From Stegostoma tigrinum (lineage: Eukaryota), in the NCBI RefSeq assembly GCF_030684315.1, contig NC_081359.1:22082184-22146183 (forward strand): DNA of 64,000 nt, given 5' to 3'. The notes beneath the pieces were generated by a model, which made no database searches, had not been told where the DNA came from, and was given only the letters and a program-made list of their open reading frames with translations. Below, piece after piece: positions 15,961 through 52,457 of the stretch (position 1 is the stretch's first letter; each line of letters starts with the position of its first letter). The position numbers and the translations under genes were made by a program.

Positions 15961-16035
15961 TAGAGTCAAATCCACAATGTGGAAGGAATTGAACAAATAA
16001 CTTTGTGAACAAAAGCTAACACATTTGATTACAAT

Positions 16036-25198: not shown

Positions 25199-25497
25199 GG
25201 TTGGACAGTGAGCTGGTTCATTGTTTTGCAGACGTTTCATTACCCTGCTGGGTAACATCATCAGTGCAGCCTCCGATGAAGTGCTGTTGTGTGTTCCCGC
25301 CTGATATTTAAACTCTGGTGTCCGTCGAGCTGGATTACCTCAAATCCGGTTTTCCTTTGCAGTGGAGTATATATCGGGTCAAGCTATATGTGTTTGTTGA
25401 TGGCCTTCTTAGTGGAGAGCCAGGCCTCTAGGAATTCCCGTACTTGTCTCTGCTTGGTCTGACCCAGGATCCTGGTGTTCTCCCAATCAAACTTACC
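25199..25497 (-). mobile_element. Penelope-like 3' fragment (endonuclease C-terminus + pLTR)
   Basis: KFDWENTRILGQTKQRQVREFLEAW...INKHI aligns with HFDWDNTPILGQAKQRHMREFLEAW at ~39.85 kb. Confidence 0.8.
25227..25268 (-). ncRNA. Minimal type I hammerhead ribozyme, core intact
   Basis: TGCA-CTGATGA-T-GTTACCC-agca-GGGTAAT-GAAA-CGTC-TGCA: both core boxes, 7-bp stem II, 4-bp stem I, GUC triplet. Confidence 0.75.
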
Positions 25498-25723
25498 GGT
25501 TGCTAATAAGCAGATTAGAAGGATTTGCAGGTTGATCATGTACATTTTGCACTGTGTGATGAATGCATCTTCAATGGTCATCACTCCTGGGTTGGGTTCA
25601 ATCCTGGAACTTTTGATTCAGAAGTACAAATTCTATATGCATCACAAGACCTCTCATTCAAAGGCAGGGTTTAATCAAATATTCAAGAAGTATCTGGTAC
25701 AAAATAGAATGATTACATTTACA

Positions 25724-25932
25724 GAGATAGTAGGAACTGCCGATGCTAGAGAATCTGAGATAACATGGTGTGAAGCTGGATGAACACAGCAGGCCAAGCA
25801 GCATCAGAGGAACAGGAGAGTTTGATGTTTTGGGTCGAGACCCTTCTTCAGAAAGGGGGGTCTTTCTGAAGAAAGGTCTCAACCCAAAACGTCAAACTTT
25901 CCTGCTCCTTTGATGCTGCTTGGCCTGCTGTG
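25724..25932. mobile_element. Family A palindromic mini-element with back-to-back decayed hammerheads
   Basis: CTGAAGA...CCC-AAAA-C(G/A)TC on both strands around 25851-25864; TGATTA(C/A)ATTTAC duplication at 25710-25722 / 25931-25943. Confidence 0.75.
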
Positions 25933-27879: not shown

Positions 27880-28250
27880 TTGATATCCTTAGAAAAATGC
27901 CAAGGGTTGATTTAATACAGGTGTTTCAAATCAGGAGAAGTTTTGATTGATTCTGCAGCCAGAAAATTCCCATTGACAGAAGAGCACAGAACCAGAGGAC
28001 ACAGGTTCAAGATAATTGGCAAGAAAAGCTGTGTGGTGATTATCTTTTTATGGAGTAGTGATTTTGAATGCATTGCTGGCAGAGGAAATGGTTTCAACAT
28101 TACTCTTCAAAGAAATTTGAGTATCTACTTTGAAAAGAAAGATTTGCAGGGCTACTGTAGAGTGGAGTAAACAAGTCGGGTCGGTATTTCAGGGAATTAA
28201 CACAGAAATGATACAATGAATGGGTGCCTCCTGTGCTATTTGATTCCATG
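27880..28250 (+). mobile_element. CR1 LINE 3' fragment
   Basis: ...KFPLTEEHRTRGHRFKIIGK... is a CR1 ORF2 C-terminal motif. Confidence 0.65.
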
Positions 28251-31200
28251 GGTTATCCAATGTGTGGTGGAACATTTAGTAGCTACTGCTACTGAACAAG
28301 TGCTTAATGCACCCATGATACTTCTATTATAGCAAGGCAGTTAACTGAAAGCTACCATTTAAATAATTATCGATGATTATGAAAGAAAAGATTCATTGGC
28401 TAACACAAGCAATGTAGTATTTAGGTTGTGTTGTTAGATGCACTAGATTTTGATTTTAGCAGCTAAACAATGATGCTTACCACTAACTTTAAAACAAACG
28501 TTTCCCACAAAGATTCAGAGATCAAAATGTGGTGGATTTCCCCCTTCTTAATCTGAGTTTAAATCTGGTCCCAAATCAAGGGGATCCTTCGAGGTTCAGC
28601 AATGTGATTACATCATACACAGTAAGCAGCCAAACACATTGAAGTAAATCTCAACAGTAGCAAACCAGGAAGTTAAGAAAGAAACTTAGGTTTTCAATTT
28701 TAATTAAAATCATATAGAAATCAATTTAAATGATTGAAATATGTACATATGGGATTAGGGCAAGAGCTGAAATATTATCAACAAACTTCAAAAAGTATTA
28801 TTCTTAAAATGTGAATTTTTTGTCATAATAGAGAAACTTGACATTTCATAAAAATAAAAGAAGCTTCTCATGGGCAGTAAGGTTGTTCAACCATTATTTC
28901 ACACTTAGTATGGAATTAAGAAATTCAGTTACACCTCATTCAACAAGGTGCAAATATGTTAAGCATTTTTACCTAGAGACAAGGAGATCAAGTTCTCATC
29001 AGTTCAGCGATTTCTGCAATCTGGGTAGTTCTCAACAGCACCCCCTATGGAAAATCTTAGATTCACTGGCAGCAAATTCTGCATTAAATCTTGCACATAA
29101 ACCTCCAGAAGTTGCCTTCAGTTTTGGAATGCTAACAGTTTGTTACCCATCATTCATCGATAACCTTGGCCATTGTGTTTAGGTTTTGCTTGCAGGCAGA
29201 GATTTCAGATTAATAATGGGTGCTGGCAGCATAGTAGTAAAGTGGATTTTACTCCACAGGCCCTGGCTAATGCTTTGGGATCACAGGTTCAAAGCTTACC
29301 ATGGCACATAGGCTGGCCTACACATGATCCAGATTCCACAGCAATGTGGTTGATTCTTAACTGCCCTCTGAAATAGTTCAGCAAGCCACTCACTTTCAGG
29401 ATTTTTGGGGTTGGATAACAAAAGCCAATCTTGATACCAGCGCTCACAAAGTATGAAGAAATAAGATTCTCTAGCACTGATATATTAGTGTAGATTTTAG
29501 TTTCTATTGTATTGTCTCCCTCACCAGCAGTGTTAAGAAATGTGCATTAATATCCAATTTACAACACTGAGGCAAAATATGTACATGCATAGTTTCTCTG
29601 TTATTAAGGTCTATGAAATTTTCAAGTGCACTTGCACGATTAGCCTGCCAATAGGCAAGGACTCTTAAAAGACTTCAATAGAAAATTGGTTTTGACATAA
29701 ACCAAGACATAATTTTATTATTGTCTAACATTAGTGCAATACAAAGTGCTTTGCACAGACAGAAACTCAATCACACAAAATTTAACCAAACAGAAATACA
29801 TTATATAAAATTGAGCAAGACAAGGTTCTGTTTGAGAATGCTGTCACAAGGTATTTCAATGTGGTTGTCAAATCAAGCCATTGTACTCAGATCTTATTAT
29901 AAGATATTGTCGACCAGTACCAATTTGTTACATTAAAGATTACCATGTTCCAGTTATAGGTTCCGTCCATTATCATCATTACATCAACAGCACTCACAGA
30001 AACTTCACTATTATGTGATTTTATACTTTTTAACTTTAATGAGAATAATGGAGTTTTGGTTACATTAGTCTGGTAAAGAAATGCTTCTAATGGACCAGAC
30101 AATGTCAGCAATTAAAAAACTGCCTAACTATATGTACTAAACATGATTGATGCCGCTGAACAAATTGCCTTTAACGATAAACATTATAATGTCTCCCATT
30201 CATGTTGTTATATGAAAAGCCCATGTTGCATCACTGTACAAATCATATTAACCAAATGCTCATGTCACAAAGGATCTAGTTTGCTGTTTTATTTTAACCC
30301 TACCACTTTTTAGCTAAGGTAAAAAGGGGAAAGTCAAATAATATCTGTGCGACAATTGTACTGAAATTATAATCTTAAACCTTTCAAGCTTAATAGCTGA
30401 ACAGAATAAACATTTGAATAAGCAATAAAAATTTGATTCTTAAATTTTATGTGGGCACAGCCTATTCCCGTGGAATCTAAATTCTCGTGCATAACCACTT
30501 CCAGAAAGCTTTTGGGGTTGTTGCAATCAAAGGTTTTCTTCTCTCACCTTCTTTACCTTTAAGTGGAATTTGCAACATCCTGACCTGTAAGCACAATGCA
30601 GGAAATCAATGGAGCAAACCTAGGTATTTTGTTTGTTGATCAGTACAACAGTACATCAACACATCCTAAAGCTGAGTTCTCTGATTCTATTTTCATTCAT
30701 TCAGCCAAGGTGCAAGTCAAAATTACGTTTAAAGACAAGAAAATAAGTTTCACAATAATTTATAATTTAGCCAAAGTGAATAAAATCATGGAAAAAAAAA
30801 GCACCACAATTTTCTGTAAGAGGGCAGCTAAAATGTTTACTGTTAGTTAGACTTGCTGTTGCATGTTTCAGATCTGAAAATGCTTTGAGGTTGTTTGAAC
30901 TGTGATCTGATAATTGCACAGTGAGGAGAAAACAGGCAGCTATGACCTGAGTAATCACAGCAATCAACAAAGCATCTTCTCAAACAATCAGATTTTGGGA
31001 TTGTGAAATTAACAGCCAAGAAAGTATAAATTAGAATGCATAAAATAGAAGGGAACAGTATTAGTGTTTTTCACTGTCAGATTAAAGTATTGACACATTT
31101 CATCATTGAAATGATGTCAGACTGGAATGAACAGGACTTAACTTTCTGTGGCAAGTTTAGATCGAGCATACAAATACAGTAGCTTCAATCAAGATGCTAT

Positions 31201-33047
31201 TTGTATAAAGCTAACAATGAAGCAATGCAAGCTTTGACAAAAACATTTGAATTTGACATAGAATTTTGGGGGAGGAGAAAACCATTTGGGCCTTTGAGTC
31301 TGCTCTACACTCAAAAAATTAATGGTTGATTGTGGTGACTGGTTGGGGTCTCGTCTCCACTCTCCAGTCCAAAGCCTTATACTTAATTTACTGTCTCTCA
31401 AAAAAGTTATTAAACTCAAAGCTGAATAAATTCAAATAGCTATTTTATGAGGAAGTGACCCTCTGAAAGAAAATGTTTCTCCTCATTTCAGTCTTAAAAG
31501 GGAGACCATTTATTCCTAAACGATGGCCCTTAAAATTAATCATGCATCCCCTTTTATAGTTGTATTAGTTATGCATAAAAAAGTAAGCACCATTAGTCTT
31601 ATCAACATTTTGACAGAAAAGTACGGTTCAGCGCTTGGTAATGGATTGCTTTACATATGTCTTAAAATTAAAACAACCCCAAAATAGGTTGTTCAAGGTG
31701 GCATTTTAATAATTCTTCTTGCAATGACCAAGGTAAAGCTTAAATACTCAGCACTGTAATAAGATGCTGCAACTATTAATCCTAGATTGTTGCACTAAGA
31801 AAGAAGAATGTGGTGCACAAGATAACATTTGTACAGAATCTTTAAAATGCTGTGTGTATGTAATTGGACTTTACAAAGCACGAGTTCAGCAATGTTCCTG
31901 TCTTTGGAGTTTGTATTAGATAATGGATGTCAGGCAGTACACAGCAATATAGTTCCCAGAACGGTTAGCCAAGCAGTTTAAGAACCCATAGGTATTCATA
32001 CTATGAGGCTGCAAGTTATCTGCGCTGATTTTACTTAGCAGGTATGGTAAAATGAAGAGTCAGTTTTCAAGCCAGATAGAAGCACATCTCTCGTAAAACA
32101 TAACTGGAAAATGATGCTGCTCAGGGTCAATTTTAGACTAACTAATTTCAACGAGAAAGTGGCATTAATGCCTGCAAAAACTACAATAGGTGGAATTTCT
32201 GACTCACAAGGCCAGGTCAAGAAGACACAAAATAATTTGTCTAACTGTGTTTACGTGAGAGCAAATACAGTGTCCAAATTTTTATGATACATTTTCTCTT
32301 GGTTTGTTCCTATAAACTGGGCTCTTCAAACATTAACTCCCAACCGTGTATTACATTATTTAAATCTGCTTCTGGAATGAAAATGCTAATGCAGGCTTTT
32401 CATTTTAAAGGCAAAAAACAACTGTTGTTAGCTCGGGCAGCCCTGATCAGTGTCATCATTTGATCTATAATGGTGATGAAATATGTTACAAGATATATTC
32501 AGGGAGAATATTCCCCTGAAGTATATTGTATAAGAAATCCATAGCTGACATTTCAGATTGTCTCCTTGTTGGATTTATTCTTCTGTGTTGCGCAAAATAA
32601 CATTACATTTAAAGAAGGGGTGCATTATTTGCTATCCATTATCTAGTCTAACGAGTCAGCAGTTCCACTCATTGTAGGTTTTGAGTTTTTGAGTGAGGTT
32701 CAATCCTTTAAATTTGACTTTCATTGAGTGTCATTCAAATGTATTCCTTTAAGTATTGTAATTGAATTCAGATATATATCGGGTAGAGTCAAATACTCGT
32801 GAATTCATTTTACATTAATTCATATTGCCCATTTATACAATACACAACCCATTTGACTATATGGCAGATCCGTCATATATTGATCTGCAAGTGGTCGGAA
32901 TTCATAATTTTTCCATTTAGTCCATCACTAAATCCTAATTTGGGAGATATAACATTTATTTATTTACGACAGGAAGCGAGAAAAACAGTTTGGAGCCAGG
33001 GAAAATTATTCGACTTTTCAGGTTGATGTCCTTTCATCATTCATTCG

Positions 33048-33185
33048 TTCTGATAAAAGGGCATTGACCTGAAACATTAACCCCGTTTTTCTTGGTCTAC
33101 AGAAGCTAACTGATCTGCTATGCATTCCTAGCTTTCTGTTTTCCTTTCAGATTCCCAACATTGGCAGTATTTTCCTCTTGTTTTC
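33048..33185 (+). mobile_element. Decayed family B pLTR
   Basis: TTCTGATAAAAGGGCATTGACCTGAAACATTAAC... Confidence 0.5.
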
Positions 33186-33646
33186 AGGCAAATAATGTGT
33201 TAATCTCGCATGAAACTATGACAAAACGCTTGTTCAACAAATCTGCTAACTATACGTGGAAAGAATGCCATTGAGTTTTGAGAAGATTTGTAGCTCAGGT
33301 TGAGGTTCTGGATGTGAGTTTGCTTGCTGAGCTGGAAGGTTAGTTTTCAGACGTTTCATCACCATTTTTTTTTATTTGAAAAAATATACTTTATTCATAA
33401 GATGTACAAAAAAAACCATATTTATACACCTACCCAGTCATGCAAGCCGCTCCGGGTTACCCAGGGGTATGTACACCAACTAAAGGGAAAAAAACAAACA
33501 AAGAAGAAAAAAAAAACAAAGCAAAGAAAATACCCCGGCAGTCGTCATCCCGCACAGTCCCAGTTGGCCCCCTGACCAGTTGGGGAAGGCGTCAGCTGGG
33601 CCCAGTTACCAGATAGGGCCCTTTATTCTATTCTGGATGAGGGGTT

Positions 33647-36600
33647 TCATACCGTGGTCTTTCCCCACCGTGCCTTGGCGGCGGCTGCCCCAAGCTTTAG
33701 CGCGTCCCTCAGCACGTAGTCCTGGACCTTGGACTGCGCCAGTCTGCAACACTCGGTCGGGGTCAGTTCTTTCAGCTGGCAGACCAGCAAGTTGCGGGCA
33801 GACCAAAGAGCATCTTTCACCGCATTGATGGTCCTCCAGGCGCAGTTGATATTGGTCTCAGTATGCGTCCCGGGAAACAGCCCGTAGAGCACGGAGTCCC
33901 GCGTCACGGAGCTGCTCGGGACGAACCTCGACCAATACCACTGCATCCCCCTCCAGACCTCCTGCGCATAGGAACACTCCCGAAGGAGGTGATCGACAGT
34001 CTCGTCCCCTCCGCAGCCGCCTCAAGGGCAGCGTGCGGTGGCGCAGAGATTCCGGGCATGCATAAAGGATCTCACTGGCAGAGCCCCCTCACCGCCAGCC
34101 AAGCAATGTCCTTGTGCTTGTTTGAAAGTTCTGGCAATGAGGCATTCTGCCAAACGACTTTGGCAGTCTGCGTGGGGAAGCACACGACGGGATCCACCCT
34201 CTCCTTTTCCCGAAGGGTCTCGAGGATACTACGTGCTAACCACTGCCTGACGGCCTTGTGGTCAAAGGTGTTTCTTTTCAAAAATTTCTCCACAAAGGAC
34301 AGGTGGTACAGGACGGTCCAACTACTCAGAGCGTTCCGCAGCAACGAGGCCAGGCCCATCCTTCGCAACACCGGGGACAGGTAGAACCTCAGTAAGTAGC
34401 GACACTTGGAGTTTGCGTACTGAGGATCTACGCACAGCTTGATGCGGCCGCACACAAAGGTAGCCGTCAGGGCAAGGGTGGCGTTCGGTACGCCCTTTCC
34501 CACATTTTACAGGTCTTTGTACATGGTGTCTCTGTGGACCCGGTCCATCCTCGACCCCCAAATGAAGTGGAAGATGGCCCGGGTGACCGCAGCAGCGCAG
34601 GTGCAGGGAATAGACCAGGCCTGTGCCACATACAACAGTACCGAAAGCCCCTCGCACCTGACAACCAGGTTCTTACCCACGATGGAGAGGGACCGGAGCA
34701 TCCACCTGCCCAGCATCTGCTTCAGTTTGGTGAAATGCTCCTCCGAAGTCTTAGTGCACGCCCCAGCTCCACCGAACCAAACACCCAGCACATTCAGGTA
34801 GTCTGTCCAGACGGTAAAGGGGATGAAGGAGCGGTCGTTCCAGTTCCCGAAGAACATGACCTCGCTCTTACCCCTATTGACTTTGGCACCCGAGGCCAGT
34901 TCAAACTGGCCGCAGATGTCCAACAGCCTACTCACCGACCGACGATCGGTCCAGAAGACGGCGACATCGTCCATGTACAGGGAGGTCTTGACCTGAAGGC
35001 CTCCTCTGGCAAGGCAGGAGTCCACCCACCTGTCCTGCACATAGCCGATCGTATCCCTGATAAGCGCGAGGCTCTCAGCGATCTTCCTGACCGGCACAGC
35101 ACAGGTTTGGTCAGGGTGAATCACCGACTCCAGGGCAGACCTGACCCGGTTGGCTATGTCCTTGGCCACGATTTTGTAGTCCACGTTCAATAGTGAAATG
35201 GGACGCCAATTCTTAATTTCTTCCCTCTCCCCCTTCCTCTTGTAAATGAGGGTGATGATGCCCTTCCTCATGGACTTGCACATTTCCCCTGCCCGAAGCG
35301 CACTATCGTACACCTCCAGCAGGTCCTGGCCGACCAGGTCGCACAGAGCTGAATACAGCACGACCGGTAAGCCGTCGCTCCCGGGAGTCTTACTCCTCTC
35401 CACGGACTTGAGGGATCTGGTCAGCTCGTCCAGGGATATCGGCCGGTCCAGCCACTCCCTCATGCCATCGTCTAAGACCACCGTGATAGACAACAGGAAC
35501 GACTCGGAGGCCGTGCTGTCCGTGGGCTTCGTGTCGTACAGTCCGGCATAAAGGATCTGCTGATCCTCAAAATGTCGGGCCGAGACGACGTCACCGAGCC
35601 GTTGTCCTCCTTCAGCCAGCTAAGCACAGAGCTCTCTTTGTGCACCTTCTGAAAGAAGAAACGCGAGCACGTCTCGTCCTGCTCCACGGACCAGAAGATT
35701 ATCCTGGAGGCCTCCGCGGCGAAGAGCGAGGCTTGCTGGCCCCTCACCTCGCGGAGGACCTCCGTGACATCGACTCCCATCAACTGCAGAAGGAGCAGGT
35801 TCGGCACCCTTTTCTGGAGTCGTGACAGCTTTCCCTGCCTCTCTCTCGCCTTCTGAACACGCTTGAGGACAAAGAACCTCTTGATGTTCTCCTTCACCGT
35901 CTCCCACCAGTCGCCTGGAGACTCAAAGAGGGGTTTCACGGTTCTCCAACCGGCGTACTCCCTCTTAAGCTCTTTGACGTTCTCTGGGGTCAACAGAGTC
36001 GTGTTGAGCTTCCACGTCCCCTTGCCGGCCGGCTGGTCGTCCTGTAAGTGACAGTCGGCCAGCAGGAGGCAGTGGTCAGAGAAGAATACCGGCTCGACAC
36101 CTGACCGAGAACGCCCGTGACACAAACAGGAAGTCTATCCTTGAACGAATAGACCCGTCTGGCCGTGACCAGACGCTGTGCTCTGTCTGCAGGGGTGCTG
36201 ACGACGTCGAGCAGCTTGGCGTCCTTCACCGTGACCATCAAGAATCTGGACGTGATGTCCAGTTGACTCCCCCCACCCGCTGTCCCCACGCCGGATCTTC
36301 CATCTGCATCGATGCTGCAGTTGAAGTCCCCGTCTAGGATGATCGGCCTGGACGTAGCCAGCACGGGTGGAAGCCGCTGCAGGACGGCCAACCGCTCACT
36401 CCGTACCGTTGGGGTGTACACCTTGATCAGCCTCAGGGGAGCGTTCCTGTAGGTGATGTCAGCCACTAGGAGGCGCCCCCCCCCAACACCTCCTGAACTT
36501 GAGAGATGGTGAAGTTGCGCTCCTGCAGCAGAATAGCCAGGCCAGAGGAGCGACAGTCGTTACCCCCCGACCAGAACGAAGGCCCATAGGTCCAGGCGCC

Positions 36601-36753
36601 GGACCATTTTCCATACCTGCCGAGGTGCGGTATCCCGCACTCCTGCAGAAACAGGAGGCCCACCTTGATGGTGGTCAGGTAGGCCAATGCGGACACACAT
36701 CTTGTGGTTGACTTGACACTGCGCACATTAATGCTCGCAACTCGTACCCCCAT
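33647..36753 (-). pseudogene. Tx1 ORF2 (APE endonuclease + reverse transcriptase), with frameshifts and an internal RT deletion
   Basis: MGVRVASINVRS..LFLQE, GDFNC, SDHC (APE); KTPGSDGLP, NWRPISLLNVDYKI, YMDD (RT); ends ARWGKTTV*. Confidence 0.9.
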
Positions 36754-38191
36754 TGTGGGCAGTGACCGCAGTACCCTCCCCAAGTCCAAGGTCCAGCCCC
36801 TCTATCTGTCCCTTCATGCCCATTGCTCCGGCTAACTGCTGGACGCTCTCCGGGCTCAGGAAACCATCTGTGCTGCCTTCCGGGTGGCATCCCCCCGTCG
36901 GGGGTACGGAGGCAGGAGAGTCCGGCTCTGGGTCAGGCTGGGGACGGGCTGCTTCCTCCTTCCCGCCTGGAAGTTCCGGGGGACCCTCCAGGGCCCCAGC
37001 GGCACGTGTCTGGGTGCCGTAAGAGGCCTCAGGATGCCTCCCGTCACCTGGAAGCGGGGTGCTGCTTTCCTTCTCCCTTGAGATCTTTAGCTTCTGCTCT
37101 GGGCGGGCCCCCTTCGTGTCTCCCTCGTCATAGGAGCTCTTATATCCCCCCTGTAGCTCCCTCTTCCTGCCTGATGGTTGCGGTTCCTGGACCCGCCGAC
37201 GCACCTTCCTCCTTGCTTTCCGGACCGTCGTCCACTCCCCTGGGTCGCCTGTTGCCGCCTCCATCGACTCCGGGTTGTCGGGGGGGGAGCGGAGCCTGGA
37301 GGGGTGCTTTGCTGGCCTCGGGCCCATCCTGCGGGGCTGGGCCCTCCTGCACAACCTGGCCCTCCTGCACATTAGTGGGGCCCCTGCAGGGCCCTGGTGC
37401 CTTCCTCTCCTCCGGGGGGGCTGGTCCCGCATTGCCCCTGCCGGCGACCTGGGCGTAGGTGGTCCCCCGCCGCAGGCATGCCCTCTCGAGGTGGCCCGCT
37501 TCCCCGCAAATGTTGCAGCTTTTTTTTGTGGGCAATCGTTTGCAAGGTGACCCTCCTCCCTGCAGTTCCTACAGATGGTGGCTTTGCAGTCGGCTGCCAC
37601 GTGACCTGACCTACCACAGGCGTGGCAGACTTTAGGTTGCCCTGCGTAGGTCAGGTAGCCCTTGCTCCCGCCGATCGCAAAGCTGGACGGTGGGTGTACA
37701 ATGTTCCCGTCCGCGCCCATCCTCAGCATCACCTTGACCTGCCTCTTACTGGTCCAGATGCCAAAGGGGTCCATGATGTCAATTAGGGCCCCTTCCACCT
37801 TCACGTGCCTTCCCACGAAGGTCAGGACATCAACTGCTGGCACATGCGGGTTGTACATGTGTACAGTCACCATACGGCTCCTCTGCGCTGGCATCACAAA
37901 CAGCTGGACAGCGGTCATTACAGAGACGGGGCCCTCACCTCCTTTCTCCTTAAAAACCTCCAGGAAGCACTCACAAAGCTTGGCATTCCTGAAGGTTGCA
38001 TCGTAAAAACCTCCTCTGGGGAAATCCTGCAGGCAGTAAATGTCCGCAGCAGCAAACCCACAACAGTCCAACAGGACCCTCTTCACGAAGAAGGTGCGGT
38101 CCACAGGTGCACCTTCATCCACCTTCTTCACGGAGACACAGATGGTGTTCCGGACCCCCTGACCTGGGGCACGAGTACTTGCTGCAGCCAT
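36728..38191 (-). pseudogene. Tx1 ORF1 (zinc-knuckle nucleic-acid-binding protein), frameshifted
   Basis: CHACGRSGHVAADC and CRNCREEGHLANDC in one frame; third knuckle CNICGEAGHLERAC in another frame after the T8 run at 37520-37527. Confidence 0.85.
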
Positions 38192-38373
38192 CGTTGCAGG
38201 TTGATGCTCCCCTGAGCCAGCGTTAGGCCGAAGCCAGCATTAAGATCCACCAGTTGCAAGGGTGCACAGCCAACCCGATGTCTTCCTTCCACCTCCAACA
38301 CAGCGCTTTCCTCCTCCCGGTCCACAGAAGAGTGGGTCTTTACTTTGTTCCACATGTAGGCTGGTTCACTGAG

Positions 38374-38434
38374 CTGGAAGGTTTGTTCCCAGATGTTTCG
38401 TCACCATTCTAGGTAACATCAACAGTGAGCCTCC
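38374..38434 (-). ncRNA. Composite hammerhead at the PLE/Tx1 5' junction (core now mutated)
   Basis: GGAGGCTCA-CTGTTGA-T-GTTACC-tagaat-GGTGAC-GAAA-CATC-TGGGAACAAACCTTCC; CUGAUGA is mutated to CUGUUGA and GUC to AUC. Confidence 0.65.
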
Positions 38435-38579
38435 GACAAAGTGCTGGTGTTATGTCCCGCATTCTATTTATCTGGTTAGGTTTCCTTGGGTTGGTGATGT
38501 CATTTCCGGCATCGGTGATGTCATTTCCTGTTTCTTTTTCTCAGAGGATGATAGATTGGCTCCAAATCAATGTGTTTGT

Positions 38580-39245
38580 TGATGGAGTTCCAGTTGGAAT
38601 GCCATGCTTCAAGGAATTCTCGCATGTGTCTCTATTTGGCTTGTCCTAGGATGGATGTGTTGTCCCAATCAAAGTGGTGTCCTTCCTCATCTGTATGTAA
38701 GGATACTAGTGATAGTGGGTCATGTCGTTTTGAGGCTAGTTGATGTTCATGTATCCTGGTGGCTAGCTTTCTGCCTGTTTGTCCAATGTAGTGTTTGTCA
38801 CAGTTCTTGCAAGGTATTTTGTAGATGACGTTCGTTTTGCTTGTTGTCTGTATCAGGTCTTTTAAGTTCATTGGCTGCTGTTTTAGTGTGTTGGTAGGTT
38901 TGTGGGCTACCCTGATGCCAAGAGGTCCGAGTAGTCTGGCAGTTATTTCGGAAATGTCTTTGATGTAGGGGAGAGTGGTTATGGTTTCTGGGCCCGTTTT
39001 GTCTGTTTGTTTGGGTTTGTTGCTGAGAAATCGGCGGACTGTGTTCATTGGGTACCCGTTCTTTTTGAATACGCTGTATAGGTGATTTTCTTCTGCTCTG
39101 CGTAGTTCCTCTGTGCTGCAGTGTGTGGTGGCTCATTGGAATAATGTTCTAACGCAGCTTCGTTTGTGGGTGTTGGGATGGTCGCTCCTGTAGTTCAGTA
39201 TTTGGTCCGTATGTGTTATTTTCCTGTCGATGCTGGTTTGAAGTT
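38580..39245 (-). pseudogene. PLE RT C-terminus / GIY-YIG endonuclease fragment, left arm
   Basis: NVIYKIPCKNCDKHYIGQTGRKLATRIHEH; internal stops. Confidence 0.85.
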
Positions 39246-39259
39246 TGTGGGGAATGGGG

Positions 39260-39990
39260 AACTTCAAACCAGCGTCTATAGGAAACCAACACATATGGAC
39301 CAAACACTGAACTACAGGAGCGACCATCCCAACACCCACAAACGAAGCTGCGTTAGAACATTATTCCAATGAGCCACCACACACTGCAGCACAGAGGAAC
39401 TACGCAGAGCAGAAGAAAATCACCTATACAGCGTATTCAAAAAGAACGGGTACCCAATGAACACAGTCCGCCGATTTCTCAGCAACAAACCCAAACAAAC
39501 AGACAAAACGGGCCCAGAAACCATAACCACTCTCCCCTACATCAAAGACATTTCCGAAATAACTGCCAGACTACTCGGACCTCTTGGCATCAGGGTAGCC
39601 CACAAACCCACCAACACACTAAAACAGCAGCTAATGAACTTAAAAGACCCTATACAGAGAACAAGCAAAACGAAAATCATCTACAAAATACCTTGCAAGA
39701 ACTGTGACAAACACTACATTGGACAAACAGGCAGAAAGCTCGCCACCAGGATACATGAACATCAACTAGCCTCAAAACGACATGACCCACTATCACTAGT
39801 ATTCTTACATACAGATGAGAAAGGACACCACTTTGATTGGGACAACACACCCATCCTAGGACAAGCCAAACAGAGACACATGCGAGAATTCCTAGAAGCA
39901 TGGCATTCCAACCGGAACTCCATCAACAATCACATTGGCTCCAAATCAGTCTACCATCCTCTGAGAAAAAGAACAAGAAATGACATCATC
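39260..39990 (+). pseudogene. PLE RT C-terminus / GIY-YIG endonuclease fragment, right arm
   Basis: ELQTSVYRKPTHMDQ...TLFQ*...IIYKIPCKNCDKHYIGQTGR...REFLEAW; 5'-truncated, stop at 39370-39372. Confidence 0.85.
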
Positions 39991-40048
39991 AACCCAAGGA
40001 AACCTAAACAGACAAATAGAAAGCGGGACATAACACCAGCGCTTCATT

Positions 40049-40107
40049 GGAGGCTCACTGATGATGTTACCTCGAATGGTGACGAAATGTCTGAAAACTA
40101 ACCTTCC
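40049..40107 (+). ncRNA. PLE pLTR minimal hammerhead ribozyme (uninterrupted arm)
   Basis: GGAGGCTCA-CTGATGA(40058-64)-T-GTTACC-tcgaat-GGTGAC-GAAA(40084-87)-TGTC-TGAAAACTAACCTTCC. Confidence 0.8.
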
Positions 40108-40189
40108 AGCTCAGCAAACAAACCCACATCCAAAAGAATACTATATTCAACAGGGTCCAGTAGATTAAAAAAAAGTCCTAATGAACTCG

Positions 40190-40670
40190 AATTTTGCAGC
40201 AGGCAAACACAAATGCATATATCACTATATTGCAGCACATCACTCACAGACATAATTTCTATGTGAGCATGAAATAATGCATTTTGGTCAGAATATAGCT
40301 CCTTTCAAAATCCCAGAGCAATGTAGCATTTTCAACATGTAGCCACTGTTTTAATCCAGGGAACATGGCAACCAAAACTAGAGCACAACAAATTCCCACA
40401 AACACCACCATGATTATGACCAGGTAATCATTTTTTGTGAAATTGAGCGAGGGAATATAATTAGCCAGAACCCCAAGGATAGCTTCCCTGTTCTTTAAAA
40501 TAGTGTCATGTTATTTTTTTATGTTCACCTAAGTGTGGTTTGGGATGTTTGTACGATATCTCATCTGTAAGATTCTGGCTCCACTATTCGCTTAGTGATG
40601 AATATCAAGAAATGTTTTTACTATACTGTGGAGTAAGACTTGAAAACAAAACCAACTGACACAGAAGCAA
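40190..40670 (-). mobile_element. Decayed Deu-domain SINE
   Basis: Reverse complement of Deu-domain motifs (AAATTCCCACAAACA...TAGCCAGAACCCCAAGGATAGCTTCCCTGTTCTT). Confidence 0.45.
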
Positions 40671-41839
40671 GAGTGTGAGAAGAAATAATGAGGCCATCTG
40701 CACTTTGAAAAGGAGTTAATCCATGGATCTAATTGAATGACAGAGCAGGTAGAATGGTTTTTTCCTGTCCATTACTAGGAGCTTTTAATATAAGCTAGTC
40801 AGGAAGAAATTCTCTAAGAAATTAAAGAGAAACTTCACAAAAGGCTTTTACAAAGCATAGTATACCATGTGGTCTAGTTGAAATGACTACTACAGATGTA
40901 ATTGAGCTGGGTCTAGGCAAGTGCATGAGAAAAAAGGGAATGCAAGTGTAGGATAGGATGAAGTGACTGAAGACAGTTCAAGAGGAGGTGCATGTATAAA
41001 TATGAACATAATTGGGTTCACTTGGCTTGTACTTATGCTGTAGATTCTGTTCAAATATTTGAGGGGCCATGAATACCTTATACCCCATGTACATCCTCTG
41101 ATGTAATGTTATTCTCAGCCTAAACTATACCAATGGTAAACCATGCCAATAAAATGATTTTTGCATGCCACACTTTAGGATTCAACTTATACCACTTGAA
41201 AACGTTGCTTTTAACTTTATTTTTTAAAAATCACTTGTAATTCAGCTACAAGATATTGCTAGATAAATAGTGAATGTGTCATTCAAATGGGAATATAAGA
41301 AAACTGTCCACTTTATAGATATGAATAGTAAAGCTGAACGGACGTACTTTTGCCCATTCCTACCATTTGGCTGATTCATTTCCTGCTCCTAACTTCAAAG
41401 TAATCAAAATTAAATATGAACATACATCCAGTTTAACACTCTTCTGGCAAAAACCTTTTCTGATTCATCGTGGCCATAAAGGTAAGCCTCAACCACTAAT
41501 TATGACCCAGGAGAAGCTACTCTTCTTTTTCATATGGCAGGAAGTTTTCCACAAATCCATTTCCCATTAATTTTAAAGATGGTGAAGAATTACTCTCCCT
41601 AACCTGCCCCATTATCAAGTTCTATAGAACAAGCACCTTCTTAAGTAAAGTAAACGTTCTAAATCATCTAACATTATCCATGATTCCTGTTTTAGTGTGT
41701 CATTTTTCCTCCAGGCTCCATCATCCCAAATAATTTACTGACTTTAATGATGGCTCATTACAACAGAGTGAACAGATTCGGCCATGAAATAAATGCTATT
41801 ATAAATGCTATGTAATGTGTTTTGGGTCAGTTTTAATGC

Positions 41840-42130
41840 TTTCTTAACTGAGACTTTAAACCAAGGCCCTGTCTGTGCTTTAAAGTAGATTTGAAAGATC
41901 CAATGATAATATTTTGAAGAAGAGCATGGTGACCTGACCATTTATATCCTTCAGTCAACATCACAGGCAACGACAGCAGATGATTATTATTTGGCTGTCA
42001 GTGAGATTTTTGCATCTGGATGTCTTGCTAAATTGCTTACATTGTGACAGTGACTGCGCATCAAAAAGTACTTTGTTGGTTATGGCTTGTTTTGTCATGT
42101 GAGGTGTGATATAAATGCAGTCCCTATTTC
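41840..42130 (+). mobile_element. Decayed Deu-domain SINE
   Basis: GAGACTTTAAACCAAGGCCCTGTCTG...AAAAGTACTTTGTTGGTT...ATATAAATGCAGTC. Confidence 0.55.
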
Positions 42131-42569
42131 TTTCACTACACACAATGTTACAGAGTCATCCAGCAATAGATCATAGTTCCCCAATGAACCAATTCAACAT
42201 GAGCATGCAATGTTCCCTCATTGATATATTTCCTGTTTACCACCTCTCTCGATCTCTAGCTTTTCTTAGTCAACACTGACTGCTTCTTCCATTTTTATCC
42301 ATTTTATTAACCTTTAAGGAAGCACTTCTTTTATGCTAATAAGTAAAGTTGCTCACCACTTAGCTATTATTTACTCACTTCATCAATTACTTCCTTCCCT
42401 TTTGTAAGGGTACAAAGCTTCTTTTGGCACCTTATTGTAGATGTTGCATTCGATTTGGGGGGATGTATTAACATGCACTTACTTCCGCACATTTTAAAAT
42501 AAAATCAGGTCATCTTGCTTTCTTATTGGCCATTTCTCATTGAGGTTTATTTGAAAATACAGTACCATT

Positions 42570-43075
42570 GTAACAGAGAAATAAGATAGAAGCAAGAATA
42601 GGCATTTTGACCTCTTGAGTCTACTTCGCCATTCGGTTTGGTCATGGCTGATTATCAAGCTCAGTACCCTAATTCTGCCCTCTCTGTATACCCCTTGATC
42701 CCTTTAGCAACAAGAGCTATATTTACCTCCCTCTTGAAATCATGTAATATTGTGACCTCAACTACTTTCTGCAATACTGAATTTCACAGGCTTGCCAATG
42801 TCTGGGTGAAGAAATTTCTTCTCATCTCAGTCATAAAAAATTCATTCCCTATCTTTAAACAGTGAATCCTGGTTCTGAACTCTCCACCCTCAGGAGCATC
42901 CTTCCTGCACCTAACCTGTCTGGTCCTATGAGAATTTCATAGCTTTCTGTGAGATCGCCCTCCGTTCTTCTAAGCTCTAGTGAACGCAATCCAATCTCTC
43001 CTCATATGACAGTGCTGACATGCCAGGAATCAGTTTGGTAAACTTTAGCTGCATTCCCTCTGCAGCAAGAGCAGA
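42570..43075 (-). mobile_element. CR1 LINE 3' fragment
   Basis: Reverse complement of a CR1 ORF2 end and 3'UTR (TTTACCAAACTGATTCCTGGCATG...AGAAGAACGGAGGGCGATCTC). Confidence 0.7.
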
Positions 43076-43079
43076 ACAT

Positions 43080-44170
43080 CATTGCTATTGAGGGAAAATT
43101 AATGACATGGCTGGGAAATTGATTGAGTAACAGATGACAGAAAGAAGGGATAATGGGTAGGTACTCAAACTGGCAGCATGTGACCAGTGTTATTCCACAA
43201 AGATCTGTGTTAGGCCTCAATTATTCACGTTATTTATTAATGACTTGGATAATGGCATAGAAATTCATGTCTACATTTGCTGATGACACAAAGCTAGGCA
43301 ACATTGTAGCATTTATGGTAGCAGAAAATTACAAAGGGATATTGTTAGACTGAATGAATGGACAAAACTGTGGTAGATGGAATTCAGCGTAAGTAAGTGT
43401 CAGGTTATCCATTTTCAATGAATAAAGGATTGATAAGAGTACTTGTTAGATGGTGTGAAGTTAAATACAAAGAATGTCCAAAGAGATTTAGGGTTTCAGG
43501 CACACAGATCCTTAAAATGTCATAACCACTGCATAAGGTAATCAAGAAACTTAAAAGAATGCTGTCCATTTTTTATCCAGAAGACTGGAGTACATGTTTT
43601 CAGAAGTTATGCTGCAATTATCTGAAGTCTTGTTTATACCCCGCTTAGAATACTGTGAAGTACATCACACGTTAGAAAGGACATATTGGCCTTGGAGAGA
43701 GTACAAGTAAGTTTAGAAGAATGATACCTGGACTTCAGGGGTTATAGGCAGTTCTGAGGAAAGTTCCTTCAACCTGAGATGTTAACTCTGATTTGTCTCC
43801 ACAGACACTACTAGACCTGCTGAGCTTTTCCAGCAATTTCTATTTTTGTTTGTTTTACAAATTGGACCCATTTTCTCCATAATTCAGAACGTTAAGGGGT
43901 GATTTGATTGAACTCTTCAAGATATTAGTGGGAAAATACAGGATGGATCAAGGTAAACTGTTTCCACTGGTTGGGGATTCTGGAACTAGGGTATATAGCC
44001 TGAAAATTAGGGCCAGTCTGTTCAAGAGTAATATGTTATAAGGCACTTCTACACACAAAGGGCAGGAAATGTTTGGAACTTTTCAATCTAGAACAATCTA
44101 GTCAAACTAGATTGACTATTTCAAAACTAGCTTCAAAGGGCTGAATGGCCTACTCTGGCTCCTATGTTCT
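43080..44170 (+). mobile_element. CR1 LINE RT-to-3'-end fragment, interrupted by a family B pLTR at ~43751-43850
   Basis: Degenerate VTSVIPQRSVLG, FINDLD, FADDTKLG, LQRDI..LNEW, KCQVIHF motifs; tail GGCCTACTCTGGCTCCTATGTTC. Confidence 0.8.
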
Positions 44171-45913
44171 TAAACTTGCTGCAGATCCCAGTTTCACTAG
44201 AGGAGTCTAAATTTATAATAAACTCCATACTCGGGATCTTATGGCCAACTGTGGTTCATTACTTAGACACCAAGTCCAACAAATTATACACTGTACATGT
44301 TCCACTGTCTTCAATCAAGGAATAATCATTTAATCATAGCAATAAATGACTGGAAGTGACCTTCCATCTCCAGTGCCTATCCTTGTTTGTCCATTTTGCA
44401 AGTGAGTAATTGAAATCTGCCATCATTATTACCTTCACTTCATTAACTATTTAATTGATATAACCGCACAGTTGTAGATATTCATTTATTTAGCTTGGTA
44501 GGGTATTCTGTAATACAAATTCATTATCACTTTGATACTTGTTTTGAACTTGACTTAGAGTGACACTTCCTTTGCATTTATTTGGCCTTACAAGTCTGAA
44601 GACTTGATTTACATGACTGACATTGTATTTGTCATTTATAAAGCTTGCTAGTCCTGCTGTGTGTATATTTTTCATCCTCTTTACTGCTTCTGTTTATTAA
44701 TGGAAAAATACTGCAGAAGCAAACACTATCTGCACATGTTTATATGTAGAACCAAACCAAGGTGGAGCATGAAATGGAATTTCTTCTGCAATAGCTTTGA
44801 AACTAATTTTGAAATAGTCAATCTCTTGCAAAAACAGTCAGTAAGGGATAAATCATGTAGAGCTAAGGGGAAAGGCATTGAGTGTAAACAACTCTGCATT
44901 TTTATAGCATGCAATATATTTCAATAAACTATAGGAGCTTCCATGAACTGACAGGGTTCAATCATCACTTGGTACAATGGGAAGGATTTTCCCTTTTTGA
45001 TGTTCAATATTGTCTTTACTCTGAATGAGAAACTCTGAATTTGCATTTAAATAAGAATTCACAAAAGACCCCAGTAAGTGAAGGTAACAACAGCAGTAAA
45101 ACAAATAGTTTTCAGAAGGTGGAAAGCAACTCCACGTATCTTCCCTCTGAGGATATGTGTTGTTTTTTATGTTGTGCAGAGATGTCACACTCCAAGTTAT
45201 AGGTCTGAACAGGAGCTTTATTCAATGCTTTAAAAAGTCTGCTGTCACCCTTTAAGCTGCTTGCCAGCTGTTTAGTTTCTGCTTCTTTTCTAGTCACCAC
45301 ACCTACGTTCAACTAATTACACACAGAACATAAAACAGACACAAATTCAAACACTGAAGAACTGAAAGCTACGAATTGTAATTAGTTTCAAGTCAGTAAC
45401 TGAAATTTTGCAAAACAAGTTTACACTTTTTGTGTGTACTGTTGTGTAATCTCTGATTTAGAAGAAATCTTACAATAATTATTCACTAATTCATGATGCC
45501 TACACATGCCAGTTACAAATGTAAGCTTTTTCTTGGTAAATGGTTACTAACGTCAAAAAGTAAAATGTTTTGGATGGGAACTGAAAGCACTTAAGAAGGA
45601 AAAACCAGATGAAGATTAGCCGATAAAATAGCTTCCTTTCAATCCTGGTGATGTTACAGGGAATTCATCTATAATTGATAAACAAGATTGTTTGGGTACA
45701 CAGTTTACATTTTTCAATGGTGCACTCCCTCAAAAAGGTGATGAGACGCTCAGACAAGAGCGACAGGAAAGAAGTAAGTTGTTTGAGAAGCATCAAAGAG
45801 ATAAAAAAATAGCAAAAGCTAAGAGAAAATATTTGCACAGTGGTAGAAGAACAAAAACTTGAAGGAAGCAGATTGCAATGGTAAGAGTAATGGGAGGGAG
45901 AGCTAAACTATTT

Positions 45914-46234
45914 GGGTGGCATGCTGGCTCAGTGTTCAGCACTGCTCTCTCACAGTGCTAGGGATCTGGGTTCAATTCCAGCCATGTGGAGTTTACATGT
46001 TCTCCCTGTTTCTGCCAGATGCTCTGGTTTCCTTTCACAGCCCAAAGATGTCTGGATTAGATAGTTTGGCTGTGCAAAATTGCTGTGTAGTATCCAGGTG
46101 AGGTGGATTAGCTAGGGCCAATGTGGATACAGGGCAGGGCCTGAGGTTTGGGTGGGATGCTTTTTGGAGGGTTAGTACAGATTCAGTGGGCTGAATAGCA
46201 TCGTTCTGCACTGTAGGGTTTCAATTTTGATTTG
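45914..46234 (+). mobile_element. HE1-like V-SINE
   Basis: tRNA A/B boxes (TGGCTCAGTG, GGTTCAATTCC), V-domain and tail as at 55828. Confidence 0.7.
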
Positions 46235-47251: not shown

Positions 47252-47341
47252 TTAATACAGTGTGGAGCTGGAGGAACACAGCAGGTGAGGTTGCATCAAA
47301 GGAGCAGGAAAGTCAACGTTTTGGGTGTACACCCTTCATCA
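47252..47341 (-). mobile_element. Family A mini-element, single arm
   Basis: GTGTGGAGCTGGAGGAACACAGCAGG...AACGTTTTGGGTGTACACCCTTCATCA (decayed HHR on the minus strand). Confidence 0.65.
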
Positions 47342-48625: not shown

Positions 48626-48834
48626 TTAGAGATAGTAGGAACTGCCGATGCTGAAGAATCTGAGGATAACATGGTGTGAAGCTGGATGAACGCAGCAGGT
48701 CAAGCAGCCTCAGAGGAGCAGGAAAGCTTAACGTTTCAGGTAGGGAAGGGTCCCAACCCGAAATGTCAGGTTTTCCTGCTCCTCTGATGCTGCTTGGCCT
48801 GCTGTGTTCATCTAGCTTCACACCGTGTTATATC
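48626..48834. mobile_element. Family A palindromic mini-element inside an old CR1 remnant
   Basis: Inverted arms plus one-sided extension; duplication AGGTTTCAGTTTG at 48612-48624 / 48837-48849. Confidence 0.75.
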
Positions 48835-49446
48835 AGAGGTTTCAGTTTGATTAGATTTGAAAGAAGTAGGTAGAAAAAATGATTCCCTTTTATTGTATGC
48901 TTCATATCTCAGGAATCAATGCAGAGATAACATTAGTTTCTAAATATGTTGCAGGTTTATTTACACAGTTTTAAGATATCTCTGCAATCACAAAATGTCT
49001 GTTCTGACAGCTCAGCTCCTAATAGCTTCTGTAACGTCTGTTTACTTTACCCTGAGTTCGTATCGAGGATTTATCAATCAAGTGTCGTGAACATAGATTG
49101 GTTACTGGACTCACATAATCAACAGAGGACAACAGAAATACTACACATCTGGTGAATGACTTGACAAAAGAAAGTAACAGATAAAAAACAGCTGTTGACA
49201 AAAGGCTGAGAGGTGAAAAGAGGGGAATAAATAACTAATCACTGTTGTAAGGATCTTGAACGCTATCCAAAAAAGTAACGGTAGTTGATTTTATAAATAA
49301 TTCAAAGTGAGAAGGCTAGGTACTTGAGTGTGAGGAATGTACAGAAATGGAGAAGAAGATGTGAGACTAAGCAGGACTGTTCTTTCAGAGAACCAGAACA
49401 CTTGAAATAGAACATCTCTCCTTATTAATAAACAAGCTTCCATGAG

Positions 49447-49545
49447 CTCTGAGGAAGGGTCACTGGACCCGAAACATTAACTCTGTTTATGCCTTCACAG
49501 TGCTGCCAGATCTGCTGAGCTTTTCCAGCAATTTTGTTTTTGTTC
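49447..49545 (+). mobile_element. Family B pLTR fragment with minimal hammerhead
   Basis: CTGAGGA(49449-55)-A-GGGTC-actg-GACCC-GAAA(49471-74)-CATT. Confidence 0.7.
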
Positions 49546-51989
49546 CATCTTAAAATCATCACAAATTAGATATTTGAAAGACGCAGCAAGAAGGCCAGAG
49601 CAAACTTCTGGCAGATTCAACTCGATGTTCTGAATGATCTTGATGTTCAAAATCGGGCATTTCAGGGCACACTTTATGGGCACCAGCCAGCCACACTCAT
49701 TGTCTATGGACAGTTACATCTGACATGTGCCAGCCTCATGGCAAATCAGTGATACACTTACAGGTCACTTCTGCACATCAATGCTGTATCATGAGCTGAA
49801 CCAGCAACTATCATTGTAATGTTGTAGCAAGGACCCTGCCCTTGTGGACTGTATCCAGCTCACGGGAGTTGATTTGGCTGCATCTGCAAGCTTTCAGCCA
49901 GAGATACCAGGTTCATATTACTGTTCTCTTGCCTTGCTGTTAAATGCAATCACAAAGCAGGAAACCTGTCATAGTTGTCAACAGGCCTCAATCAATTCAA
50001 GGGAGATAGCCTTCATTTTAAAGATTGGCCAGAGGCTGGACAAAAGAGCTGCTACAAGGCTCTGGTGGGTAATTAATGAGGCAAACTTGATAAGATACAG
50101 AAAGATCATTTGCTAGGCCTAATGACGTCAAACGCTCCAAATTACTTTGATATAACTTAGAGTTAGCTAAAAAATGTAAGATTGAACCCTATGATTATAC
50201 TAGTGTTAAAGCACTTTTAAAGTCTCACTTTCAATGGAATGCCAGATTTTGGTGTAACCCTTGGTTTTCATTTATCTTTCTGTGGTATTCCATCCATTTC
50301 GCACAGATAGTTTGTTATTTAGTTTACCATTTTTGCTAACTGATTAATCTGAATGCTTTGCAAATAGAAGAGAGCACCTTCAAGTTTAGGTTAGGGTCAA
50401 AGTACAAAGCTTCTAAAAGGATTTGCATTATTTTTTGGGGGAAAAAATGTCAATGAAACACTTCTCTTCGCCAACCCCACCCCCCATCACCCACCACCTT
50501 CCAAAGCCTCAGTATCTCTGAAGGATTCACTGAAAGTAAATAATTTTAGTGTTATTTTCTGCAGCAACTTACACCTCTATTTGACATTGATTAAGCCTTT
50601 ATTCACCCACAATGAACAGTCAGATGCAAGATTAACAGTGACATATCACCCAATAAACATCAGCTATGAAATGATTTGGTCTACTTTCCTTTTGAAATTT
50701 GTAAAAAATGACTTGAACCCTCTGTGCAATCACCTCAACCATTCATATGTTTGTTGCCAGCTAACAATTAACTTGGTGTTAATGAATGTGTCAACTAGGC
50801 ATCATATTTGTGTATTTGTAGCTCATGTTTATGATGTTAACAGTCTCGATCAGCTATACAGCTACTTAACACTTAGCTTGAGAATCTTGGCTGTTGTGTG
50901 GAGGAGCTGAGTGTATTTATGCAGTCAGTGCATGGAGTATATAAATCTTAAAATTTATGGATATTACTTTTTTCAAGCTAACATTAATGTGTGAATTTTA
51001 TCCCTTCTGTAATCAAAATTTCTCTGAAGTCTATGAAACTGGTGCTTTTCACAATTCAGGTTGCCCATTTGTCTACTTCCTTCAACCAGCTGTAAACATA
51101 AATGCACATGATTCCATACCTGAAATTGACATACAATATATTGGTTTTACATGGATGCTTTCAAATTATCAAGGCGTTTCAGAATAATCATACAGTTGCA
51201 GTTGTGGCTAAAATGCCAACAAAGGGCTATTTGTCTTTTATTTAATCCAATTATGTTTTGGGGGGGAGCACTGACTTATGTCCAGAACTTTGACGATTTT
51301 AAAAGAAAATGTTGTAACATCTGCAAGCCATTTCTCCATTTCTTAACACTAGTTGAACCGTGATGATCCAAATACAGGGCAATAAATGTCCTATGTTGAC
51401 AGCTTGTAAAATGAAATAAAATAATGTCCTGTGTTTGTGTTAGTTTTCTGAATAAAAATAAATTTAGTGCATAATCATTAGAGTGGATAACACATCTGTC
51501 TTTTCAACAACCCATCTATTCTTCAGCTGCAGGAATTTAATAGGAGTTCAATTTGGTTTGAGATTTTCTTATCATTAAGTTTGACCAAAGTATTGCGAAA
51601 AGAGTGAGGATAGACGACGTCGGATGATTATTTGGATAGAAATGGTGTGCAGAGATATGGGGAGAAAACAGGAGATTGGCAGAAGGTCATAGAGCTGGCA
51701 CTGGCACAAATGATCTCCTTCTCCATCATTACAGATCTGATTCTGAGATACTGAGATAATTTTCTTATAGCGTGCACATTTGTACACTACCTTCTGCCAG
51801 ATCTGACTACATTTACAACAGACTTTACGTTGTCAATTTGAGCTGTTAATTAAGGTCTTGAATACCAACACAATACAATTTCAGACAGTTAGACAATAGG
51901 TACAGACTCATTGGTCAGGAGCCCAATTTCCATGGAGCTGGCTTATTCCCTCTCCACAGGTTAATTTCTAAAACCAGCCTATATTTCTG

Positions 51990-52204
51990 GATGATAGGAA
52001 CTGCAGATGCTGGAGAATCTGAGATAGCAAGGTGTAGAGCTGGATGAACACAACAGGCCAAGCAGCATCAGAGGAGCAGGAAGGCTGATGTTTCGGGCCT
52101 AGACCCTTCTTCTGAAGAAGGATCGAGGCCCGAAATGTCAGCCTTCCTGCTCCTCGATGTTGCATGGCCTGCTGTGTTCATCCAGCTCGACGCCTTGTTA
52201 TCTT
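51990..52204. mobile_element. Family A palindromic mini-element
   Basis: Arms centred on CTTCTTCTGAAGAAG (52105-52119); plus-strand CTGAAGA...GCCCGAAATGTC; TATATTTCTG repeated on both flanks. Confidence 0.75.
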
Positions 52205-52457
52205 ATATTTCTGATAACCTGACGCTGGATAACTACAGGGAATAGCTGTTACTCAAGATGCCGTTGAATTGCTTGTTTACATGGTAGTGGTTGCCCACAC
52301 CTCTGGAGGTAGATTTCCATTGCTTGCCTCTTGCTGCCAACAAATTTGGGGCCAGCCAACTGAGAAGATACCTTGTTATCCAGAGCTCCATTTTAAAAGA
52401 AAACGCAAACCTTTGTTCCTGTGTGCATTTAGTTTTCATTCATTGCCGGGGTGGAAG

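Follow-up and report, generated by a model that had tools for sequence, protein, structure and literature searches.

A Tx1-like LINE in the Penelope hammerhead of Stegostoma tigrinum probably inherits upstream target sequence rather than borrowing the host's ribozyme

Target-specific Tx1 LINEs that insert in other transposons have been described from Xenopus (Tx1L, in Tx1D) and from crocodilians (Tx1-Mar, Tx1-8_Crp, Tx1-4_AMi and Tx1-9_AMi), and for SINEU transcription from the flanking transposon has been suggested (PMC4494074); the word "Penelope" is absent from the main text of that paper. For R2, the RNA is reported to include upstream target sequence, uniform 5' junctions to arise by annealing of the cDNA to the target, and junction variants to be propagated; in earwig R2 a 22-bp duplication of the downstream target, with three substitutions, is found at all 5' ends (Eickbush et al., PMC3774820). 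As for Penelope elements (PLEs), hammerhead mutants leave their insertion in vitro unimpaired, cleavage needs the PLE protein, and the main substrate in vitro is uncut RNA (Frangieh et al., PMC11167929). Among the papers listed by searches of mainly open-access literature, none was found to deal with a Tx1 element that inserts in the hammerhead of a PLE.

Such an element lies in the stretch of DNA analysed here, a window of 64,000 nucleotides from Stegostoma tigrinum (NC_081359.1, positions 22,082,184 to 22,146,183 of the forward strand). An original prediction from the sequence of the window held that this LINE is transcribed by read-through from the PLE and that a hammerhead rebuilt upon insertion frees its 5' end. 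We have followed up both parts with copies of the LINE and its target from the whole genome.

The LINE, its PLE host and the target site

The Tx1-like LINE of the window runs on the minus strand from about 38404 to 33365. Its ORF1 (36728..38191, minus strand, 487 aa) contains two ZCCHC3-type RNA-binding domains and CCHC knuckles (Pfam), ORF2 (33647..36753, minus strand) specifies an APE-type endonuclease and a reverse transcriptase (RT), and the 3' UTR (33365..33646, minus strand) has an AATAAA and a short A tail. ORF2 is split into several broken frames in this copy, in which Pfam detected a piece of the RT; another copy (L064) has a natural ORF2 frame of 981 aa, with PF03372 (APE-type endonuclease) followed by PF00078 (RT). 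The endonuclease ahead of the RT, the A-rich 3' tail and the fixed target site are features of the Tx1 clade, as is the ORF1 type with RNA-binding domains and CCHC knuckles, which we take to be a mark of that clade. Named relatives of ORF1 come from cartilaginous fishes, and the best matches to the RT among the 120 listed of 154 are amphibian RTs (45–47%); the names Tx1L and Keno do not appear among those 120. Compared with most other copies, that of the window is missing ~280 bp in the RT region, at about 35010 in ORF2.

The host has the terminal repeat with hammerhead, the variable tail and the inverted arrangement of a PLE. A PLE palindrome (38354-40129, self-match 90.9%) houses the LINE in its left arm. 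The remainder of the palindrome comprises a GIY-YIG end and pLTR on the left (38442..39225, minus strand), with a TATA-like box that may serve as promoter (38464..38471, minus strand), and, on the right, the mirror arm (39242..40135, plus strand), which bears the short tail and a free hammerhead. The GIY-YIG match in the arms is weak (E=9e-4; 19.9 bits, below the Pfam cut-off of 22.6), and no RT core was found in the window's PLE fragments. Behind the LINE lies the downstream half of the target, the original host copy (33273..33364, minus strand), with the 3' strand of stem II, GAAA, the cut site and the long PLE tail. The copy at 40.1 kb, which the prediction used as a separate host copy without saying that it is the mirror arm of the palindrome, is host sequence and is that arm. 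The PLE reading frame begins at an AUG at 38419, inside the hammerhead, and is open through the tail in 6/6 free arms shown. All 12 PLE palindromes examined have one long and one short tail, and in 10 of them a repeat of 7–16 bp flanks both ends (by script).

The two arms of the window palindrome are ~100% identical in the inner 300 bp and ~88% identical farther out, as expected of conversion near the centre, and the repeat of the right arm is 22 bp shorter, with an apparent short inversion. A more distant PLE end (25206-25491, minus strand; 66–69% identity) has its own hammerhead motif with a different stem II loop. Elsewhere in the window, a frame of 1025 aa with six cadherin repeats and a Protocadherin domain (2272-5349, minus strand) is an ordinary host gene exon. 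Two further repeat families were seen: short palindromic repeats in six copies (10110-10314, 16034-16139, 25722-25932, 47253-47341, 48628-48845 and 51990-52209) and a short dispersed repeat of ~100 bp in five (11788-11889, 12151-12279, 43749-43854, 49445-49547 and 60173-60350).

Searches with the 5' and 3' ends of the LINE gave 2333 and 2462 candidates, respectively, of which 40 of each were scored and 39 non-window loci per end were fetched. The family has about two thousand copies, with 1837 junctions between target and leader (the LINE's first bases, see below) by exact pattern count genome-wide, and occupies ~10.7% of hammerhead arms. All 69 LINE 3' junctions examined, window included, show an A tail joined to the 3' strand of stem II, with the PLE tail beyond it; the target resumes at GTGA in 43 and one G earlier in 23. 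Among 67 complete 5' ends, 62 follow a PLE hammerhead and three the tail of another copy at the same target; the remaining two are at palindrome centres. That the LINE is target-specific and its copies share a leader was thus borne out (69/69 3' ends in PLE stem II; 65/67 complete 5' ends after the target). Complete copies make up 28 of the 39 loci chosen by 3' end, and none of the 11 incomplete ones is joined at the target site. At least 5–7 bp of stem II are doubled at insertions, the inherited leader hiding the true length of the target-site duplication. Tandem copies and junctions of the form A tail, target, A tail also occur (L045, L063). At two loci (L169 and L170, about 1480-1560) a LINE 3' end is followed by leader-type target and then PLE tail, likely by recombination of leader and tail in a tandem copy.

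The junction hammerhead and the alleles upstream of the cut

A position check and RNA folds confirmed the hammerhead parts where they had been placed, including the predicted cut between 38392 and 38391. On the minus strand, the 5' strand of stem I (38426..38434) is PLE sequence; the core C3-A9 (38419..38425) follows, with U instead of A6 at 38422, and an extra U separates it from the 6-bp stem II and its loop (38400..38417). The LINE interrupts the 3' strand of stem II, its point of insertion being ahead of 38404 or 38405 or, in the window copy, of 38406. G12-A14 (38399-38397), a minimal stem III and the cleavage triplet make up 38392..38399, with A instead of G16.2 at 38394. The catalytic core in the window is hence broken at two places; both changes are LINE-linked alleles. 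The motif fits the minimal hammerhead of Cervera and De la Pena (PMC4209133). Rfam gave no hammerhead family match in 28000-46000; its MIR5565 match over the palindrome centre was below the gathering score and was treated as a hairpin artefact.

Past the cut comes the leader, a diverged duplicate of the downstream target that the LINE carries (38347..38391, minus strand). Its reported alignment was reproduced exactly (38389->38354 against 33347->33312, 26/36 without gaps, a 15-nt exact core at 38383-38369); the match to the 40.1-kb copy (40094-40129) is 28/36, and the two host copies are nearly identical, as claimed (34/36). The likeness over 38389-38354 stood, while the extent did not, as most copies continue it for another ~7 nt, up to about 38347. 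The leader was present, whole or in part, in all complete copies examined, so that its match to the PLE is not due to chance, and it is, as proposed, an old copy of the target that travels with the LINE rather than a fresh target-site duplication. Nor does it belong to a current PLE subfamily, a possibility named beforehand as fatal to the prediction: genome-wide, 1545 leader ends run into LINE and two into PLE tail, both of the latter at LINE 3' ends. An origin as the mirror of the right arm was also ruled out, the leader being common genome-wide. The leader's GG is found in 0/66 free arms, and its near-fixed stop codon (38368-38366) halts the PLE frame after 17 codons in 66/76 LINE junctions vs 6/66 free arms.

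The 17-codon upstream ORF (38419-38366 in the window, minus strand) is out of frame with ORF1 in 38/43 copies. In many copies (window 38400-38192, minus strand; L052, L064, L131, L048) the ORF1 frame stays open for ~70 codons 5' of the AUG and across the leader. Of the ORF1 relatives with a whole N-terminus, the closest two have their start at this AUG, and the upstream open stretch may be chance.

The prediction had described the core of the window copy (CUGUUGA) as decayed. Exact counts at A6 over the genome gave 867 junctions with U and leader, 970 with A and leader, 142 with U and host tail and 15132 with A and host tail (odds ratio 95), i.e. CUGUUGA is an inherited family allele (867/1837 LINE junctions vs 142/15274 free arms). 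From hammerhead mutagenesis A6 is known to be needed for cleavage, which A6U would abolish. After the duplicate loci L111 and L121 had been dropped from the association counts, the second change, G16.2A (A38394), was found in 51/76 LINE junctions and 2/66 free arms, and in 15/69 of the 3' target copies, the original targets; the difference between 51/76 and 15/69 (p=5e-8) rules out CpG decay as its source. G16.2A abolishes the palindrome that the dimer fold needs. Other copies have a block change at 38399-38396 (G12-A15.1), which includes A13->G, in ~14/76 LINE junctions vs 0/66 free arms and 0/69 3' target copies. G12A (21/76 vs 8/66) is not clearly above decay. These changes in the passed-on copy of the landing site are predicted to break the hammerhead motif.

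When LINE junctions are compared with unselected arms, 38422 is the sole linked site upstream of the insertion point, from which it is 17-18 nt away. Associations 100-160 nt upstream were an artefact of choosing free arms by the 40.1-kb query and were gone with unselected arms; an allele at 38438 fell to p=0.08 once conditioned on its neighbour. The linkage at 38422 would also result if the LINE preferred PLE copies whose core had been broken beforehand. Given that only 1/27 unselected free sister arms has A6U, and that the original targets preserved behind the LINE keep CG in 45/69 and never have the block change, we consider such a preference barely credible.

LINE-linked sequence thus lies on the host side of the cut. 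The claim that the cut falls 2 nt before the first LINE-specific base fails, as A38394 and T38422 are both upstream of it, and the LINE cannot be said to start at the cleavage site when donor-linked sequence reaches at least 30 bases upstream. Had the RNA been cut at 38391, the upstream bases would come from the new target, and the share with an intact motif would equal that of free arms, where 65% (9921/15274) have the full pattern (exact match to CUGANGA, extra base, stem II, GAAA, palindromic 15.2-16.2 and UH). The observed figure is 9.5% (175/1837 leader junctions); in the fetched loci the core is intact at 14/76 LINE junctions vs 51/66 free arms. Purely host-derived upstream sequence is present in at most ~15% of copies. 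Judging from the junction sequences, RNA released by cleavage cannot lie behind most copies: the core is broken, by inheritance, in most LINE junctions, which implies that the RNA that was copied was uncut.

The "borrowed ribozyme", in which insertion rebuilds an active hammerhead and the cut of read-through RNA frees the LINE 5' end at 38391, is contradicted by these figures. The leader does keep stem I much like the host (mean pair probability 0.36 vs 0.35 proximal, 0.51 vs 0.59 distal), its GG adds a pair, and there are the 175 junctions with a full core. A ribozyme helix completed by host bases is moreover already known from the P1 stem of R2 (PMC3774820). Against this, apart from the inherited alleles upstream of the cut and the shortage of intact cores, distal stem I is weakened in 32/76 LINE junctions, no class of copies starts at the cut, and single minimal hammerheads failed to cleave in vitro (PMC4209133). 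Leaders with foreign letters right before the cut numbered four genome-wide, three being local changes within an otherwise normal context and the fourth ambiguous, although this test is a weak one, since annealing of the cDNA would hide starts at the cut. Taken together, we regard a rebuilt, active hammerhead as very unlikely.

Start of the RNA and route of insertion

The other half of the prediction, read-through transcription from the PLE, fared better. In 10 short free palindromes, hand-picked among the shortest of the first 100 rows of two pattern listings, 7/20 arms begin at the base equal to 38441 (five by alignment, two read from the sequence), which suggests this base (minus strand) as the 5' end of the PLE RNA and likely also of the read-through LINE RNA. 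It lies 30 nt after the TATA-like box, and all LINE-linked alleles are downstream of it. The usual spacing of TATA box and start supports a distance of ~30 nt. With linked alleles upstream of the insertion point and PLE arms that start at 38441, read-through from the PLE appears to be the best explanation of the data.

We consider it probable, on the comparison of copies, that the LINE inserts at a fixed site in stem II and inherits upstream target sequence, with an RNA that likely starts at the PLE promoter and stays uncut and a cDNA that likely anneals to the target; it is likely, then, that what the LINE borrows is the host's promoter and not the host's ribozyme. In this model the LINE endonuclease would nick before the G(G)TGAC of stem II, with priming at the A tail; priming by the LINE fits the tandem copies and doubled A-tail junctions (L045, L063). 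Transcription would begin near 38441 in the pLTR and pass through the uncut hammerhead, giving an RNA with ~36 nt of upstream target followed by the old ~55-nt duplication of downstream target. The leader may go back to a target duplication of ~55 bp that became part of the transcript and diverged afterwards, a course also proposed for earwig R2. The end of the cDNA would pair with the target and overwrite a stretch of varying length, which would account for precise, mostly full-length copies and for mosaic junctions; in five copies (L037, L040, L049, L106, L167) host-type letters do reach to varying depth into the leader. An R2-type feature, a template RNA that includes upstream target, is indirectly indicated by the allele linked at 38422, 17-18 nt before the insertion point.

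Some observations sit less easily with this model. The 9.5% of junctions with a full core could cleave, and two copies at palindrome centres, where no PLE precedes them, begin upstream of the cut, L043 by 9 and L134 by about 4 nt, which could mark an internal start. A LINE with its own start near 38400-38395 would need the 38422 allele to have spread among LINE-bearing loci by gene conversion at the DNA level, and conversion from arm to arm is indeed visible (L185, and the nearly identical inner 300 bp of the window palindrome). However, A6U stands at 47% over ~1800 dispersed copies, each with 3-4.5% private change, and the centres where L043 and L134 both lie are where deletions are common; such an origin seems unlikely.

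The LINE is found on both arms in 13/40 palindromes, more than expected from an occupancy of 10.7% (p=2e-4, a hand tally that leaves out L043). At 16 loci with a copy on the opposite strand, seven sisters are in the closest tenth, six are no closer than usual and three are between. With this excess and these alike sisters, inheritance of the upstream target through read-through RNA needs conversion between arms in addition. At L185 the identity of sisters breaks off inside the 5' UTR, as expected of a conversion tract, and at L187 they are alike over the 210 nt shown; the sharing of tails between sister arms is weak (5/33 vs 40/676), and a comparison of the PLE upstream of sister arms is suggestive, with a noisy control. 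At five loci (L136, L137, L043, L161, L164) the LINE occupies both arms with little or no forward PLE between, through centre deletions or transport by the PLE enzyme.

The same excess would follow if PLE and LINE travelled together as cargo of the PLE enzyme, which would prime at the PLE tail that follows the LINE and take the upstream alleles along. Rare alleles common to sisters (L137, L187), two palindromes of LINE sequence alone that have one long and one short PLE tail (L136 and L137, the former with a 9-bp flanking repeat) and the 0/11 5'-truncated copies joined at the target site are in agreement with such cargo. Yet the linked alleles end at 38422, in six of the 16 pairs the sisters resemble each other no more than unrelated copies do, and tandem copies and repeated A-tail junctions indicate LINE priming; the length of upstream PLE also drops alike in LINE-bearing and free arms, which centre trimming could mimic. 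As a general account it is improbable, and transport by the PLE enzyme may explain a minority of copies.

Breakage of the ribozyme and comparison with known systems

The tree of LINE bodies is star-like, from which the family appears to have expanded from few sources, and the upstream alleles are not sorted by clade. Selection might have favoured changes that break the core, since cleavage would strip the RNA of its cap, or since the PLE protein would take the RNA. We give such selection about the same weight as its alternative, neutral hitch-hiking in a few source copies. Of the 52 nt from start to leader, 14 belong to the core and stem III, and the chance that three separate changes all hit these 14 is about 0.02 (hand arithmetic), but one of the three is a CpG hotspot, and A6U also removes an upstream AUG. 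LINE junctions fold 2 kcal/mol more stably (59 vs 52 junctions, p=3e-5). The idea that the changes lock an inactive hairpin was unsupported, single changes ranking 6-69 of 108 in stabilisation. The fuller proposal that the LINE parasitises the PLE promoter and has been selected to disarm the hammerhead, with three breakages, a short upstream ORF and a dead version that overwrites new targets, can be put forward only tentatively, and we think it somewhat less probable than its negation. If true, selection on the breakage would show that PLE hammerheads cut, or bind the PLE protein, in the animal germline. In any case, the junctions offer a natural allelic series (intact, A6U, G16.2A and block change) for asking if PLE minimal hammerheads work in vivo.

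Free PLE arms resemble the minimal hammerheads of metazoan PLEs in their core, the extra base after A9, G10.1-C11.1 and the palindromic 15.2-16.2, as well as in having variable tails and an ORF that begins at stem II (PMC4209133, PMC11167929). The LINE junctions differ from these in being broken in ~90% of copies and in cutting the PLE reading frame to 17 codons.

Like the target-specific Tx1 LINEs described before, the present LINE has two ORFs, an APE-type endonuclease, a fixed site in another repeat and tandem copies (PMC4494074). It is unlike them in that it targets the PLE hammerhead, which makes the PLE ribozyme a new class of target for such LINEs, and in that it inherits a copy of the target in which the ribozyme core is mostly broken.

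The likeness to earwig R2 lies in the inherited, diverged duplication of downstream target at the 5' end (PMC3774820). R2 has a single ORF, a restriction-like endonuclease and a 28S rDNA target, in contrast to the two ORFs, APE endonuclease and PLE target seen here, and it encodes an active HDV-like ribozyme, while in the present case the host supplies the ribozyme and the inherited RNA would pass through it uncut; a 5' end released by a ribozyme is therefore a feature of R2 that this LINE does not share. What it would add is R2-style joining by homology in an APE-type LINE, for which the ~1800 natural junctions appear to record replacement of target by donor. This bears on how precise, full-length LINE 5' junctions arise, a matter of importance for LINE-based gene insertion. 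Each ingredient has a precedent, so that the LINE is better seen as a variant than as a category of its own.
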